This document shows, in pieces, positions 57,435-62,796 of a stretch of 64,000 nt of DNA. Made by a program: the position numbers and the translations under genes. Positions within the stretch are counted from its first letter, which is position 1. The number at the start of each line of letters is the position of its first letter. The DNA is taken from the sequence record JX128259, one strand, 5' to 3'. The stretch comes from Escherichia phage ECML-134. Below the pieces are notes generated by a model. That model did not search any database. It was not told where the DNA came from and saw only the letters and a list, made by a program, of their open reading frames with translations.

Positions 57435-58070
57435 TCACAGTTCAGATGCTACAGTGATTACTGCTTCAATGTTTTCTGCCGAACGTTTAATGTCAAGATA
57501 CACATTACCATTTTTAGCGATTTTACATGACATTCCGATATCAGTAAATTTCTGAATATGATGTTCCATCATTTTGTATCCAAAAATTCGCATGTTTCCA
57601 TTGTTGTTAATTTCAAAATTACGAATTCCGTGAGTGCGTTTTTCTAAAATAGCGAGATAGTTACTGCGATAAGTTTCAACCTTTTTAAGAACAAATCCAT
57701 TTTCATCTAAAAGTTTTAACATGAGGTCTTTATCTTCTTCCATATCGGAAGTAATCTCACGAGCTTTACGAGTTGCTCGTTTTTTCAGTAGTTCCGGAGC
57801 ATTTTCCTGTGCGTATAAAGTTGCTGCATTTGAAATAATATCCTGAGCTTCACCAGTAATGATTAATCCATCACCAGATTTCTCCACCAGGCCTTTTTTA
57901 ATCAACACCCCAATATTACTATTAACTACTGCATTACCTAAATCTGGATGCACCTCACGAACTTCTGCAGCTGTAATGAAATCTTTCTTAGCAATAGTAA
58001 TTAAAATCGCAGCAGTTTTTTCATTCAGAACATCGTTAGAAGCTTTGATGATGTAAGTTACTTTAGACAT
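57435..58070 (-). CDS. motA: MotA middle-transcription activator
   Basis: 211 aa; T4 length and position; own early promoter upstream. Confidence 0.92.
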   Translation of the reverse strand: MSKVTYIIKASNDVLNEKTAAILITIAKKDFITAAEVREVHPDLGNAVVNSNIGVLIKKGLVEKSGDGLIITGEAQDIISNAATLYAQENAPELLKKRATRKAREITSDMEEDKDLMLKLLDENGFVLKKVETYRSNYLAILEKRTHGIRNFEINNNGNMRIFGYKMMEHHIQKFTDIGMSCKIAKNGNVYLDIKRSAENIEAVITVASEL

Positions 58071-58111
58071 TTTCTAATCTCCGTAATTCTGTATCAGTAG
58101 TTGATAGTTGT

Positions 58112-58141
58112 ATAGTACCATAGAATGCTTTGGTTGTAAAC
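58112..58141 (-). promoter_or_regulatory. Early promoter TTTACA-N17-TACTAT (motA)
   Basis: Near-identical copy of the 41614-41643 module upstream of motA. Confidence 0.7.
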
Positions 58142-58159
58142 AGTTTTGTGAAAAAAATT

Positions 58160-58193
58160 TTAAAATAAAAAAGGGAGAGCCGAGGCTCTCCCT
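58160..58193 (-). terminator. Terminator downstream of gene 52 and the 49-aa peptide ORF
   Basis: GGGAGAGCC-GA-GGCTCTCCC with T-run on the - strand. Confidence 0.75.
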
Positions 58194-58197
58194 AAAA

Positions 58198-58347
58198 TTA
58201 CTGCATGACTGTGATAACTGTCATGATAACACGTTGAATTCCGAACGCAAGAAGACCTCCTGCTACGGCTGGAACAACGCCTAAACCCGCCAGTAAAATG
58301 CTGCCAGATACTAATGCAGCGCTTGTAATACCAATGAATGGACTCAT
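58198..58347 (-). CDS. Small hydrophobic membrane peptide (49 aa)
   Basis: ATG overlaps gene 52 stop (ATGA); translation MSPFIGITSAALVSGSILLAGLGVVPAVAGG...; terminator hairpin immediately downstream. Confidence 0.5.
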   Translation of the reverse strand: MSPFIGITSAALVSGSILLAGLGVVPAVAGGLLAFGIQRVIMTVITVMQ

Positions 58348-59672
58348 TTGATTTCCTCTAAATCTTTGGTGTATTCAGTAACTACATCAGTAGTTTTCCA
58401 ATATTCGTTTTCTTCTTTTTTAGCTTTAGCTTCTTCAGCAAGTTTCTTTGCTTCGTCGGAAGTCATATGAAAAATATTCATTCCAACTAGATTATCAACA
58501 TAAGAAGAATACATATCGATTTTCGAAAGTTCTTCGGTCAGTTCTTTACGAGTTTTACCTTGTACAACAATTTCACCTGAAATTACTTTCTTAATGAAAT
58601 GTGCCTTGGCAAAGGCTAAACGAAAAGCTGACTCAGTTTCTTTAATTTTGTTATCAATTCGTTTTTGGACATAAGTTTTACGAACTTCAACAAAGTCTTT
58701 AATTAAATCAACTACGTTATCGTAAACTTGTAGTTTTCCTTTCTCATTAATAACCGTAATATTCTGAGAACGACGCTCAATCAACCCGAAGTCTTTCATA
58801 ATTTTTGCATGGCGTTCTTCTTCGTTATCGCTCAAAGAGTATTCTTTGCGGAATTTAACTTTGAAGCCAAAGCCATGCTCACCACAAGCATCATCCCATG
58901 TAATGAAGCCTTTATCTTCAAGCGGGTCTAAGATTTTACTCACATAAGTTTCACGATCATACTTATACGGAATCTCAGTGATATGCATTTGAGTTCGTGA
59001 AGTAAACTTATATGTTCCACGAATTTCATATTGCCCATCAATTTCAACGACTTCACCACGAAATTCTGGGAATTCTACTTTCGGTTTAGTTACTTTCTTT
59101 CCTTGAAGAGCTTGCAGTACAGCTTTCTTAACAGAAGAAACGCTATGAGGAAGAATGTAAGTTGCATAACCAGTTGCAATACCGGAAACGCCATTAAGAA
59201 GAACAGTAGGAATAATAGGCAAATAGAAAGCAGGCGGAATGTGTTCTTTATCTTGATGTACCGGAGCATATTCAGTATCTTTATATACGTTATAGAAATT
59301 TTTACTTACACGAGCAAAAATATAACGACTTGCTGCTGCTTTTTGAACGGTACGAGAACCAAAGTTTCCTTGACCATCTAACAGAGGAAAGTTATTATTC
59401 CAAGTGTTAGCCATCAAAGCGCCTGCGTCTTGCGCAGAGTTTTCACCATGATGATATCCAAGGTCCGCTACACCGCCTGCAATAGAAGCGAGTTTGTGAA
59501 ACTTATCTTTATTTCCTCGTGCCAAATCAAGAGCTCGAGCAATAACAAATCGTTGAACTGGCTTAAATCCATCAATCATATTTGGAATAGCACGATTTTC
59601 AACCGTGTACATAGCATAAGCCAATGCTTCATTATCAATGATACTTTTTAAATCGCGATTATTCAGTTGCAT
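58344..59672 (-). CDS. 52: DNA topoisomerase II medium subunit gp52 (GyrA-like)
   Basis: 442 aa, T4 length and position. Confidence 0.93.
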   Translation of the reverse strand: MQLNNRDLKSIIDNEALAYAMYTVENRAIPNMIDGFKPVQRFVIARALDLARGNKDKFHKLASIAGGVADLGYHHGENSAQDAGALMANTWNNNFPLLDGQGNFGSRTVQKAAASRYIFARVSKNFYNVYKDTEYAPVHQDKEHIPPAFYLPIIPTVLLNGVSGIATGYATYILPHSVSSVKKAVLQALQGKKVTKPKVEFPEFRGEVVEIDGQYEIRGTYKFTSRTQMHITEIPYKYDRETYVSKILDPLEDKGFITWDDACGEHGFGFKVKFRKEYSLSDNEEERHAKIMKDFGLIERRSQNITVINEKGKLQVYDNVVDLIKDFVEVRKTYVQKRIDNKIKETESAFRLAFAKAHFIKKVISGEIVVQGKTRKELTEELSKIDMYSSYVDNLVGMNIFHMTSDEAKKLAEEAKAKKEENEYWKTTDVVTEYTKDLEEIK

Positions 59673-59676
59673 AAAT

Positions 59677-59817
59677 TTACCATACTAGTGAATGTAGTGC
59701 CATAATAACATCAGAAATGAAAAGCACGACTTGAATTAATCCGAACATTACTCCATAATATAGTGCTACCAATAAAGTAGCAAGGGCTAATGAATAGCCC
59801 AAGATTTTCTTAATCAT
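59677..59817 (-). CDS. Small hydrophobic membrane peptide (46 aa)
   Basis: ATG overlaps upstream ORF stop; strongly hydrophobic; below ORF-track cutoff. Confidence 0.45.
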   Translation of the reverse strand: MIKKILGYSLALATLLVALYYGVMFGLIQVVLFISDVIMALHSLVW

Positions 59818-59968
59818 TAGTAGATAACAACACAAATGTTAAATATGCACACATACCCTGGGCTAAAGCTTGTGAAAACACACTGCTAGCATCGATACAG
59901 ATAGTTAAAACACATGCTACTATCCAACAAATAAATGAAATAACTCCTAATAATTTTGCGATATTCAT
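59810..59968 (-). CDS. Small membrane protein, paralogue B (52 aa from MNIAKLL...)
   Basis: GGAGAA RBS; shares F.CW...C....SVF.QA.AQG pattern with the adjacent ORF. Confidence 0.6.
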   Translation of the reverse strand: MNIAKLLGVISFICWIVACVLTICIDASSVFSQALAQGMCAYLTFVLLSTND

Positions 59969-59978
59969 AATATTCTCC

Positions 59979-60134
59979 TCAACTATTTTTAGAACCAATG
60001 TACGCGAATAATGATAAAATCGCTAATACGCCCTGAGCTGATGCTTGCAAAAATACTGAAGTTTCTCCAGTTATTACTGTTCCGATGCATAAAAAGAACC
60101 AACAGAAAAAGGCTATACCGTGAACAAATTTCAT
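59979..60134 (-). CDS. Small membrane protein, paralogue A (51 aa)
   Basis: GAGGAAAATATG start; MKFVHGIAFFCWFFLCIGTVITGETSVFLQASAQG...; paralogous to 59810..59968. Confidence 0.6.
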   Translation of the reverse strand: MKFVHGIAFFCWFFLCIGTVITGETSVFLQASAQGVLAILSLFAYIGSKNS

Positions 60135-60221
60135 ATTTTCCTCACTGGCGTCCGAAGACGCCTTTGGTTTTAAGATTGTTACGATAGAACTGCATCACAT
60201 GTTCGTTATGGAAATTACTCA

Positions 60222-60680
60222 TTAATATGCCTGCAAAACAAATTTAAAGTTATCAGCCAACATACGGTTCATTTCTTCAAGTGTTTGATACTCAGAATGA
60301 TGATTACGAGTAAACGCTAAAGCTAACTGTCCTTTTCCAAATCCCGTCGTCAAAGGTTTCATCTTAGAAGCAGGCAGATAAAATACTGTGTATGGAACAT
60401 TGTTATTTGCAATAGTACGTGCAAGTTGAGACCGGCGTTGACGAATATGACTTAGAACTGCACTGAATCCTTGCTTAGAACGCTGATTACCTACATAAAA
60501 TCGTGCAGACACACATGGATTACTAAATGGACGACCATCTAATTTACTTACTAAAAAGTAAAATCCAGGTTTAGATAAAATATCTTTATGCGGAGTTCCC
60601 AAAAACCACTCACCACCCTTGATTGTACCAATAACAGTAGCGCCTGCATTGTTCAGATCAGTAACAGTCATGTATTTCAT
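60222..60680 (-). CDS. ndd: Ndd nucleoid disruption protein
   Basis: About 152 aa from MKYMTVTDL...; T4 position. Confidence 0.82.
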
Positions 60681-60740
60681 ATTAATTTCCTCTAAATTAT
60701 TTTCTACTCCAAGGCCGCATGAATACACACGGCCATTAAA

Positions 60741-60956
60741 TTAATCGTCGCAGTCGACGCTCAATTCCCAAAACTCTTCTACGGTATAAGTTTCAGTATC
60801 ATTTTCAATACAGAAACGTTCATTACTGTTATTTGCTAAAGTAGCGTTAACTGTCGGTTTCTCGCTAGTGCTCTTAAGAGGTGAAATACGAATTAACTGA
60901 TCACCGTTATCTAAACAGAAAATTTCACCAACTTTTACATCTTTAAAACTTTTCAT
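60741..60956 (-). CDS. Hypothetical protein
   Basis: 71-aa ORF. Confidence 0.55.
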   Translation of the reverse strand: MKSFKDVKVGEIFCLDNGDQLIRISPLKSTSEKPTVNATLANNSNERFCIENDTETYTVEEFWELSVDCDD

Positions 60957-61071
60957 AATTCACCTCAAGGAGTATAAAATCCAAATGCAGTTGTTGACCA
61001 TCCCATCCAATACGGGAAATTTGCGCCAATGTAAAACATGAGAATATAAAACCAACCGCTCAGCAAATTCA

Positions 61072-61290
61072 TCATTTTACACCATTCCAAATTGTTTCAA
61101 CTACGGATTTTAAACCATTTTGATGAATATCCATTCCGACTACCGCCATCAAATAGATTCCAACTACAACTGAACCTAAGGCAAAAATCAGCATGAAAAT
61201 GAATAAAGCCGGAAAAATATTATCGAAAAACCATTCAATAAATGTAAAAGCACTACGTTTACGCTTCATATTTTCCTCACATAAATCCAA
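61072..61290 (-). CDS. Hypothetical membrane protein
   Basis: 72-aa ORF with TM segment FPALFIFMLIFALGSVVVGIYLMAVVG. Confidence 0.55.
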   Translation of the reverse strand: MDLCEENMKRKRSAFTFIEWFFDNIFPALFIFMLIFALGSVVVGIYLMAVVGMDIHQNGLKSVVETIWNGVK

Positions 61291-61390
61291 AGTAAACGTT
61301 TAATACATCAATCATTAAAACGATTGGGAATATACTCAAAACTATTAGTATTATAACTACATTCCATATAGCTTTAACAATCTTTTTCAT
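61277..61390 (-). CDS. Small hydrophobic membrane peptide (37 aa, MKKIVKAIWNVVIILIVLSIF...)
   Basis: Start chosen downstream of the early promoter at 61419-61448. Confidence 0.45.
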   Translation of the reverse strand: MKKIVKAIWNVVIILIVLSIFPIVLMIDVLNVYFGFM

Positions 61391-61418
61391 TTTCTGTTCC
61401 TCCGTAGTTGATAGGGTA

Positions 61419-61448
61419 ATAGTACCACGGAAGAACAGTCTTGTAAAC
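61419..61448 (-). promoter_or_regulatory. Early promoter TTTACA-N17-TACTAT
   Basis: GTTTACA ... gtggTACTAT on the - strand. Confidence 0.6.
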
Positions 61449-61633
61449 AACTTTTTTAAAAATATTCGTAATAAATGTGAATACCAACTACTACCGCTGA
61501 AACCTGTGCAACCCACCACGCACAAGCAATAAGTACAGAATTCAAAATTTTCATAATAACCTCATTACAAAAGTAAATGTTAAACAAATTACTGGAATAC
61601 TAATTAACCAAACAAAACACCACCATAATGAAC

Positions 61634-61897
61634 TCATAGTTCAATCTCAGCGATTTTCATTTCATTACTATTAATAGCCGCTTTAAGACTATCTGAAAGA
61701 ATTACATTCCAGTGATCATTCATATGACCATTAACTAAGCGTGTAATTTCTTCAGGAGTTGAAAAATAAGGCTGATCAGACTCCCAATGCGATAATCCTA
61801 AGCGAGTATAAATCATACCTTCATCGTCGCTAGAATATTCAACTGACACAAACTCATCAGTTATTTTATGTTTAGCGTAATAAAATTTAAATTTCAT
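61634..61897 (-). CDS. Hypothetical protein
   Basis: 87-aa ORF with own early promoter. Confidence 0.6.
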   Translation of the reverse strand: MKFKFYYAKHKITDEFVSVEYSSDDEGMIYTRLGLSHWESDQPYFSTPEEITRLVNGHMNDHWNVILSDSLKAAINSNEMKIAEIEL

Positions 61898-61930
61898 TTA
61901 TTCTCCAAATCCGTATCAGTCGATAGTTGT

Positions 61931-61960
61931 ATAATACCACGGTCCTTGTGGTATGTAAAC
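61931..61960 (-). promoter_or_regulatory. Early promoter TTTACA-N17-TATTAT
   Basis: GTTTACA ... gtggTATTAT on the - strand upstream of ORF 61634..61897. Confidence 0.6.
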
Positions 61961-61976
61961 TAGTTTATGAAAATTT

Positions 61977-62534
61977 TTAGATGGAAAGATACCAGCCGTT
62001 GTAGTTGCTTTTTCTTACAACCTTACGAAGGTCTTCTCTATCACCGATGAACTTCGGAGTGTACTGGATGACACCTGGATGAATTTCTTTAGTGTTGAAT
62101 ATAATTATACAGTCAGCGACTTGGTGATTCAGAATGGGCCCTAGATTTATTCCAGAACCGTATGGATACTCTCCGCTGCATCCTGTTGTTACCGAAATCC
62201 AACGTGAGTCAGTTTGATGTGTCTTAACTTCTACACGAAGCCCACAGTATTTTGGATGTGCTAAAACATCCCATGCATACGTGTACGGATCATCGACATC
62301 TTCTTGACCTTTATTAACATACCCGCTTAGCCAATCTGCTACAAAAAACTCTGCGTATACAGCGATACGGCATCTTTCGATAACTTCTGCCTTATCCTGA
62401 TTTGGGTTCTGTTTTAAAGAGTATCTTGCAGTATCAGCAATTTTGACCTTCATTTCACTAGTCAAGTCACTGTTCGATAGGGTAAATGTCGGAATCTGAA
62501 ATAGTCTCTGTAAACCCGGATTCGTTTTCTGCAT
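61977..62534 (-). CDS. denB: Endonuclease IV (DenB)
   Basis: 185 aa, T4 length and position next to rIIB. Confidence 0.8.
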   Translation of the reverse strand: MQKTNPGLQRLFQIPTFTLSNSDLTSEMKVKIADTARYSLKQNPNQDKAEVIERCRIAVYAEFFVADWLSGYVNKGQEDVDDPYTYAWDVLAHPKYCGLRVEVKTHQTDSRWISVTTGCSGEYPYGSGINLGPILNHQVADCIIIFNTKEIHPGVIQYTPKFIGDREDLRKVVRKSNYNGWYLSI

Positions 62535-62796
62535 TTAGACTTTCCTTTTTACCACTGAGATAAGCGTTATACACTTTAAGAGTACCATAGTAAATTCGAT
62601 CATTTTCATCTAAAGAATTACGATCAAGTTCATCGAGATTCTTTTTGTCCATGACTATAACATCATTGCAGTAAAGAACTCCAAGTTTTTCATGCCCAAA
62701 CTCGAATTTATTGCAGTACACAATATTAGCGTAATGATTACCGTGTAGAGAAATTTCTTTTATGTCGGTGTCACCGATATTCATACAATAAATCAT
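62467..62796 (-). CDS. Hypothetical protein (denB.1-like)
   Basis: 109-aa ORF. Confidence 0.55.
   Translation of the reverse strand: MIYCMNIGDTDIKEISLHGNHYANIVYCNKFEFGHEKLGVLYCNDVIVMDKKNLDELDRNSLDENDRIYYGTLKVYNAYLSGKKESLNAENESGFTETISDSDIYPIEQ

Follow-up and report, generated by a model that had tools for sequence, protein, structure and literature searches.

Tandem ac genes of two diverged types between stp and gene 52.1 in a Tequatrovirus genome

INTRODUCTION

The Ac protein of phage T4 (PF26944, Phage_T4_Ac; phrog_2501) is the closest described relative of the genes analyzed here. In the accessible text of a recent preprint (bioRxiv 10.1101/2025.06.30.662393), acridine sensitivity is the only phenotype that has been linked experimentally to the Ac family. 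According to that text, T4 plates on acriflavine when it lacks ac or when its AQG motif carries the substitution G38R, and expression of T4 Ac sensitizes E. coli to acriflavine and ampicillin. Phage PP01, which has an Ac variant with one added threonine, is described there as still acriflavine sensitive. The authors of the preprint proposed that membrane-located Ac blocks AcrAB-TolC, and a 2026 PNAS paper repeats this proposal as an assumption (PMC13250531). As far as the accessible text of the preprint describes it, its survey of Ac took in A-type sequences only, found by BLASTN at 93% identity or more (bioRxiv 10.1101/2025.06.30.662393). Throughout, we call the T4 type of Ac "A" and the type found in phages RB51 and RB32 "B." The other described T4 protein encoded at this locus is gp52.1 (DUF7396, phrog_3595), and a T4 deletion running from 52.1 through denB is viable (PMC6071114).

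A host peptide offers an analogy only. AcrZ of E. coli binds AcrB; like Ac, it is an inner-membrane peptide of about 50 residues, and the pump concerned is the one that has been proposed for Ac. AcrZ has one membrane helix, whereas Ac has two in the AlphaFold2 model described below. A profile comparison of AcrZ with Ac, for which the AcrZ sequence was entered by hand, gave an hhalign probability of 0.2%, meaning no sequence relationship.

RESULTS

Identity and layout of the locus

The window is the whole stretch of 64,000 nucleotides analyzed here (Escherichia phage ECML-134, JX128259). It is a Tequatrovirus, and 901 bases around the locus are 98 to 99.8% identical to many Tequatrovirus genomes. 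One tandem-type genome, that of the Basel phage FriedrichZschokke, is 99.1% identical here. Every gene in this region of the window is on the minus strand, and the order of transcription is ndd, stp, B-type ac, A-type ac, 52.1, gene 52 (Table 1).

An initial annotation had described three adjacent ORFs, placed between gene 52 and ndd in the region where T4 carries ac and stp. We found its coordinates and peptide sequences to be correct, with all three ORFs on the minus strand. We identified the flanking genes as the ones it had named, and the order of 52.1, ac, and stp agrees with that in T4. Its description of small hydrophobic membrane peptides also holds for all three ORFs. It further held that such genes are easily missed by ORF callers, but public annotations do call them: the matching Tequatrovirus records annotate "acridine resistance" twice at this position, together with "putative membrane protein" or "hypothetical protein." The stp gene, which had been named as a T4 gene of the region and left off the list of features, sits just outside the interval that was described.

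Table 1. Features of the ac locus and its flanks in the window
Feature	Position	Strand	Description and basis
Gene 52 (topoisomerase II medium subunit)	58344-59672	minus	Downstream flank
Gene 52.1	59677-59817	minus	46 aa from MIKKILG; Pfam DUF7396
A-type ac, T4 ac ortholog	59810-59968	minus	52 aa from MNIAKLL; translation compared with T4 NP_049877
Spacer, 10 nt, GGAGAATATT	59969-59978	minus	Between the B and A copies; sequence read
B-type ac paralogue	59979-60134	minus	51 aa, ATG start, begins MKFVHGIAFFCW; ORF list and phrog_2501 match
stp	60142-60222	minus	26 aa; Pfam PF08133 at E = 2e-21; T4 stp position
GGCGUC-UUCG-GACGCC hairpin	60147-60162	minus	Within the stp 3' end, just 5' of the B-copy Shine-Dalgarno sequence
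ndd	about 60222-60680	minus	Upstream flank; putative start is the ATG of MKYMTV

stp overlaps the ndd stop by 1 nt and is followed by the B copy after 7 nt, and 52.1 ends 4 nt before gene 52. The third ORF had been reported to overlap the second through an ATGA. The overlap itself is real, but it measures 8 nt instead of 4 (ATGATTAA, 59810 to 59817). The B copy has the Shine-Dalgarno (SD) sequence GAGGAAAAT ahead of its ATG. Both ac copies have strong SDs that are built on the stop codon of the preceding gene (TGAGGAAAATATG for B and TGAGGAGAATATTATG for A), and that of the A copy, GAGGAG, is formed by the 10-nt spacer with the preceding TGA stop. This A-copy SD in the tandem (59969 to 59981, minus strand) contains GGAG, whereas T4 ac and the B copy have GAGGAA. 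We take GGAG to be the target motif of the T4 RegB endoribonuclease. Since only the A-copy SD in the tandem has this motif, the A and B copies might be regulated differently.

The A copy is T4 Ac (NP_049877, 51 aa) with one extra threonine, Thr50, three residues from the end. T4 has this one ac only and no counterpart of the 51-aa B-type ORF. The B copy is of the same family as T4 Ac and shares its length, its hairpin architecture, and the SVFxQAxAQG motif, including the glycine that is altered in G38R, but its identity to T4 Ac is low, about 43% over 40 aa. It is orthologous to the genes named ac in RB51, RB32, RB33, RB68, and wV7 (71 to 76% identity), with which it shares the start MKFV(H/N)GIAFFCW and the slot directly after stp. 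The B type is the sole ac of these phages, and its stop there overlaps 52.1 (...KND*). In contrast, the B copy of the window ends in ...KNS* and is followed by the second ac gene. ORFs of the 51-aa B type are labeled "acridine resistance" in dozens of GenBank records.

The 46-aa ORF matched Pfam DUF7396 (PF24129) over positions 1 to 46 of 46 with 81.9 bits against a cutoff of 27 (E = 3.5e-23). It differs from T4 gp52.1 at one residue, has the same position and overlap, and shows no notable difference. 52.1 lies directly upstream of gene 52 in 38 of 50 T4-like loci. The gp52.1 pattern YYG..YG....VLFISDVI....S..W is near-invariant, and the protein is commoner and better conserved than Ac. All three genes are already known from curated families and public annotations.

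Paralogy and age of the two ac copies

Because hydrophobic peptides can resemble each other by composition alone, we compared the two copies against shuffled sequences. The local alignment score (Smith-Waterman) of B against A was 85. In 20,000 composition-preserving shuffles of both sequences, the mean was 23.4 ± 4.7 and the maximum 54, and none reached 85. BLASTP aligned the copies with 17 of 40 positions identical (43%; E = 6e-10), and both matched phrog_2501 over positions 1 to 50 of 50 (E = 4.9e-26 for B and 3.7e-25 for A). Thus, the paralogy of the first two ORFs, which had been proposed from a shared residue pattern, survives alignment statistics. We also considered 52.1 as a relative of Ac and rejected it; it scored 19 and 21 against the two copies, under the shuffle mean.

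The initial annotation had called the pair a tandem duplication, and here the paralogy stands but a recent local event does not. The two genes share 54% nucleotide identity over 120 aligned nt (40 codons), and their synonymous sites are near saturation (pS 0.74, with dN at 0.53), which rules out a recent tandem duplication. In addition, each type is found singly at exactly the same slot in other genomes, A in T4 and B in RB51 and RB32. The tandem joins two old Ac lineages and is no fresh duplication.

The two types also differ in how fast they change. Between the window, RB51, and RB32, 24 to 30% of B-copy residues differ, and the flanks are nearly identical. The dN/dS of the B copy was 0.43 to 0.54 in comparisons of the window with RB51 and RB32, which indicates moderate purifying selection on a gene that evolves quickly. 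Relative to T4 ac, the A copy has one synonymous change and the added Thr codon, with zero nonsynonymous changes. The B type thus diverges far more than the A type between otherwise near-identical genomes, and this faster divergence could reflect relaxed or diversifying selection instead of conserved function.

Breadth of the Ac family

In a search of 5.8 billion proteins, a family profile built from eleven members picked up 28 clusters, each of them from T4-like phages or from assemblies containing T4-like phages. Several of these clusters carry the precomputed Pfam label PF26944, and one contig record names the model Phage_T4_Ac. An exhaustive HMMER search of 1.84 billion representatives gave 17 clusters (50% identity), which are phage-type peptides of 33 to 64 aa with the same pattern, save two long repetitive proteins (P0035 and P0037). 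We considered these two as possible bacterial relatives and judged them probably spurious, given that they match in short stretches only. On the basis of these searches, Ac is a small family limited to T-even-type phages.

Every family member has W12 and V27, and T19, Q30, and Q34 reach 90% conservation or more. Conservation is strongest in the turn and over the N-terminal half of helix 2 (SVFxQAxAQG). Both copies in the window carry AQG, and both sit between stp/ndd and 52.1/52, the genomic position of the Ac family. Outgroup members scored higher with B than with A (121 versus 67, 80 versus 44, 79 versus 55, and 61 versus 43), which makes the A type the more derived branch. A metagenomic member (P0029) is intermediate between the two types. 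The Ac of phage T6 (P0027) has 49 aa and a different, shorter C terminus (…AQGMWCIFNICVVI), as if frameshifted past AQG. Old data cited in the accessible text of the preprint have T6 more proflavine sensitive than T2 and T4 (bioRxiv 10.1101/2025.06.30.662393).

Predicted structure of Ac

AlphaFold2, given a 26-sequence alignment, modeled the B copy as a helical hairpin with helices at residues 2 to 21 and 25 to 47 and a mean pLDDT of 91.9. Charged residues are found only at the ends and in the turn, both in the B copy (K2, H5, and K49 at the ends; E24 in the turn) and in the A copy (K5 and D52 at the ends; D26 in the turn). Given this charge placement and the positive-inside rule for membrane protein orientation, we predict that Ac is an inner-membrane hairpin of about 50 residues, with both ends cytoplasmic and the short acidic turn (TGETS or IDASS) periplasmic. 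Helix 2 carries two conserved glutamines four positions apart, followed by a glycine (QxxxQG), and this conserved polar face is likely to be a contact surface. When the hairpin was compared with the PDB by Foldseek, the best match (E = 3.9) was to two helices of cytochrome bo3 subunit IV, which we set aside as a generic hairpin match. A profile search of PDB sequences found no Ac relative with a solved structure.

Three arrangements of the ac locus

Queries spanning the gene junctions found A-type ac in 457 records of the phage collection. The B-A junction is covered in 49 of these 457, which are therefore tandem, and about 408 have A only (457 minus 49). The B-52.1 junction of RB51 is covered in 91 records. 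About 49 of them cover it in two pieces with an A copy intervening, leaving about 42 with B only (91 minus 49). The B copy occurs at full length and with at least 95% identity in 46 records. In every arrangement, the last ac gene overlaps the 52.1 start in the same way as in the window. This constant overlap suggests that synthesis of ac and 52.1 is coupled; it would lead to coupled translation and possibly to joint action of Ac with gp52.1.

The junctions carry marks of how the arrangements may have arisen. In T4, the junction reads CGCCAGTGAGGAAAATATGAATATT, in which the window sequence upstream of B is fused to the A coding sequence, consistent with a crossover at TGAGGA(A/G)AAT..ATGAA, which is repeated. 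The B-only junction reads AAAAATGATTAA, which fits a crossover at AAT (AAT|GATTAA), with the end of B (AAAAATAGTTGA) as one partner and that of A (ACTAATGATTAA) as the other. Phage fFiEco06 (NC_054914) has a single A-type ac, and its Stp (L055 1300-1386) is a 28-aa chimera that ends in GSKNS* and is followed by the same 10-nt spacer as in the window. Upstream of ac it keeps 28 nt, consisting of the last 18 nt of the B gene and the B-A spacer. Because the 3' end of the B gene and the spacer survive there, this arrangement must, as judged by these remnants, have been derived from the tandem by deletion. The same extended match (query positions 1 to 117) was seen in 5 of 60 evenly spaced entries among the A-type matches. 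The T4-type single copy may also be a deletion product, or the tandem may have come from unequal exchange between an A-only and a B-only genome. Overall, recombination at short repeats, which lie around the ribosome-binding sites and at the ...AATGATTAA end, would convert the A-only, B-only, and B+A states into one another. The locus would then be a clean, small example of gene-cassette gain and loss by short-homology recombination in T-even phages.

Other variants were seen at this locus. An 81-aa ORF (P0023; L046 2645-2860) fuses residues 1 to 18 of Stp in frame to a full A-type Ac and matches both PF08133 and PF26944; this fusion could be an stp frameshift or a sequencing error. JS98-like phages (L011 2561-2641 and L016 2504-2584) have a partial 52.1 5' end directly after ac and the complete 52.1 about 210 nt further on, which looks like an insertion through short-homology recombination at the same hotspot. 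In an otherwise 99% identical phage (MZ234018), an additional 174-nt ORF (L001 2216-2389), which is absent from the window, separates stp from ndd.

DISCUSSION

Taken as a whole, the interval very probably consists of known T4-type small-protein genes, namely, B-type ac, A-type ac, and 52.1, with the two ac genes representing old, diverged lineages of Ac-like membrane hairpins. What our analysis adds is modest: the tandem of two old Ac lineages, three locus states in Tequatrovirus with their scars, and the observation that experiments have apparently dealt with the A type only. A second, quite different Ac type, which stands alone in about 42 Tequatrovirus genomes and beside the T4 type in about 49, is a blind spot of Ac work confined to the A type.

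The A-type Ac of T4 makes infected cells accumulate acridines. The B copy is probably an active Ac as well, because it keeps every conserved position, including the glycine of G38R. It would do the same kind of job via helix-helix contact in the membrane. As the most likely mechanism, Ac would disturb a partner in the inner membrane and thereby block the efflux of dye; the published proposal for this partner is AcrAB-TolC. We hold this pump-blocking step tentatively and rate it somewhat short of an even chance.

Its main rival is perturbation of the membrane itself. Ac hairpins could oligomerize into a pore or otherwise disturb the inner membrane in the manner of a viroporin, so that acridine influx rises or the proton motive force falls, and two ac copies would then merely add dosage or form hetero-oligomers. 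We consider this rather unlikely, although several observations are consistent with it. The QxxxQG of helix 2 places polar residues inside a membrane helix. The classical reading, according to the accessible text of bioRxiv 10.1101/2025.06.30.662393, was increased dye uptake or permeability after infection. The sensitization to ampicillin by Ac described there could be explained by a general membrane defect. However, in the same text Ac expression without drug comes with no reported toxicity and viral titers are unaffected, and a drop in proton motive force would act through the same pumps anyway.

A and B may have diverged toward different targets in the host inner membrane, such as different RND pumps or pump alleles of Escherichia, Shigella, and Yersinia, or they may work as a heterodimer, and the polymorphism would mark a host-adaptation or arms-race locus. 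This idea we regard as improbable. Were it true, what the phage gains from ac, a question standing since the 1960s, would become directly testable by allele swaps. Natural allele swaps exist, because B-only and B+A genomes circulate, and they would serve to test the role of Ac and the reason why phages retain a gene that renders them sensitive to a drug.

It is just as improbable, in our estimate, that the B copy of tandem genomes is a neutral, redundant leftover of recombination between A-only and B-only genomes and is now being lost. The roughly 408 of 457 A-type records without B, the deletion of B in fFiEco06-type genomes, and the fact that T4 thrives without B would all agree with such a loss. 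However, the B copy is full length and at least 95% identical in 46 records with its SD intact, its functional motif is preserved, about 40 genomes have no other ac, and its dN/dS of 0.43 to 0.54 denotes constraint.

The initial annotation had offered the cluster as a candidate for defense modulation, and this role found no support beyond the gene neighborhood. In a fuller form, A and B would have diversified as proteins that escape or block membrane-associated bacterial immunity or are recognized by it, with acridine sensitivity as a by-product. The neighboring stp, by its annotation and PF08133, interacts with a host restriction/anticodon-nuclease system, and it is on this neighborhood that the proposal rested. 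The presence/absence and allelic polymorphism among genomes that are otherwise 98 to 99% identical, and the B type evolving faster than its flanks, a pattern often seen in arms-race genes, are also compatible with it. Against this, the family occurs only in T4-like phages, it has no domain suggesting such a role, and its dN/dS is below 1. Searches of Pfam, PHROGs, and the literature found no link of Ac or gp52.1 to defense. We therefore consider a defense role very doubtful.

Mass spectrometry routinely fails to detect very small hydrophobic peptides, and this general point counts against reading the ORFs as untranslated chance frames in AT-rich intergenic DNA, an idea that can hardly be credited. 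The T4 52.1, ac, and stp transcripts are early and their proteins went undetected by mass spectrometry (PMC9697503 Table S2), in line with that idea, but point mutations and knockouts define T4 ac as a gene (accessible text of bioRxiv 10.1101/2025.06.30.662393), the ORFs are conserved across genera with synonymous bias, the SDs and gene overlaps are conserved, and curated Pfam and PHROG families exist. For ac and 52.1, chance frames are refuted as far as sequence evidence can refute them.

The remaining observations concern RNA elements and neighboring ORFs. The hairpin in the 3' end of stp (-16.3 kcal/mol, z = -3.2) is also present in T4, RB51, and RB32. Read on the plus strand, it precedes a T-run and has a terminator-like score. 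It may serve as an mRNA stabilizer, in translational control, or as an antisense terminator. A promoter scan of positions 59500 to 62700 gave 14 sites where 12.9 were expected, no informative excess, and an Rfam scan of positions 58000 to 62500 gave subthreshold chance matches only. From ndd to denB (60741 to 61637, minus strand), there are small hydrophobic ORFs of 71, 72, and 28 aa together with mutually overlapping ORFs of 43 and 82 aa. These ORFs are part of the same membrane-peptide cluster and lie, by position, where T4 and phage Aplg8 annotate ndd.1 to ndd.6.
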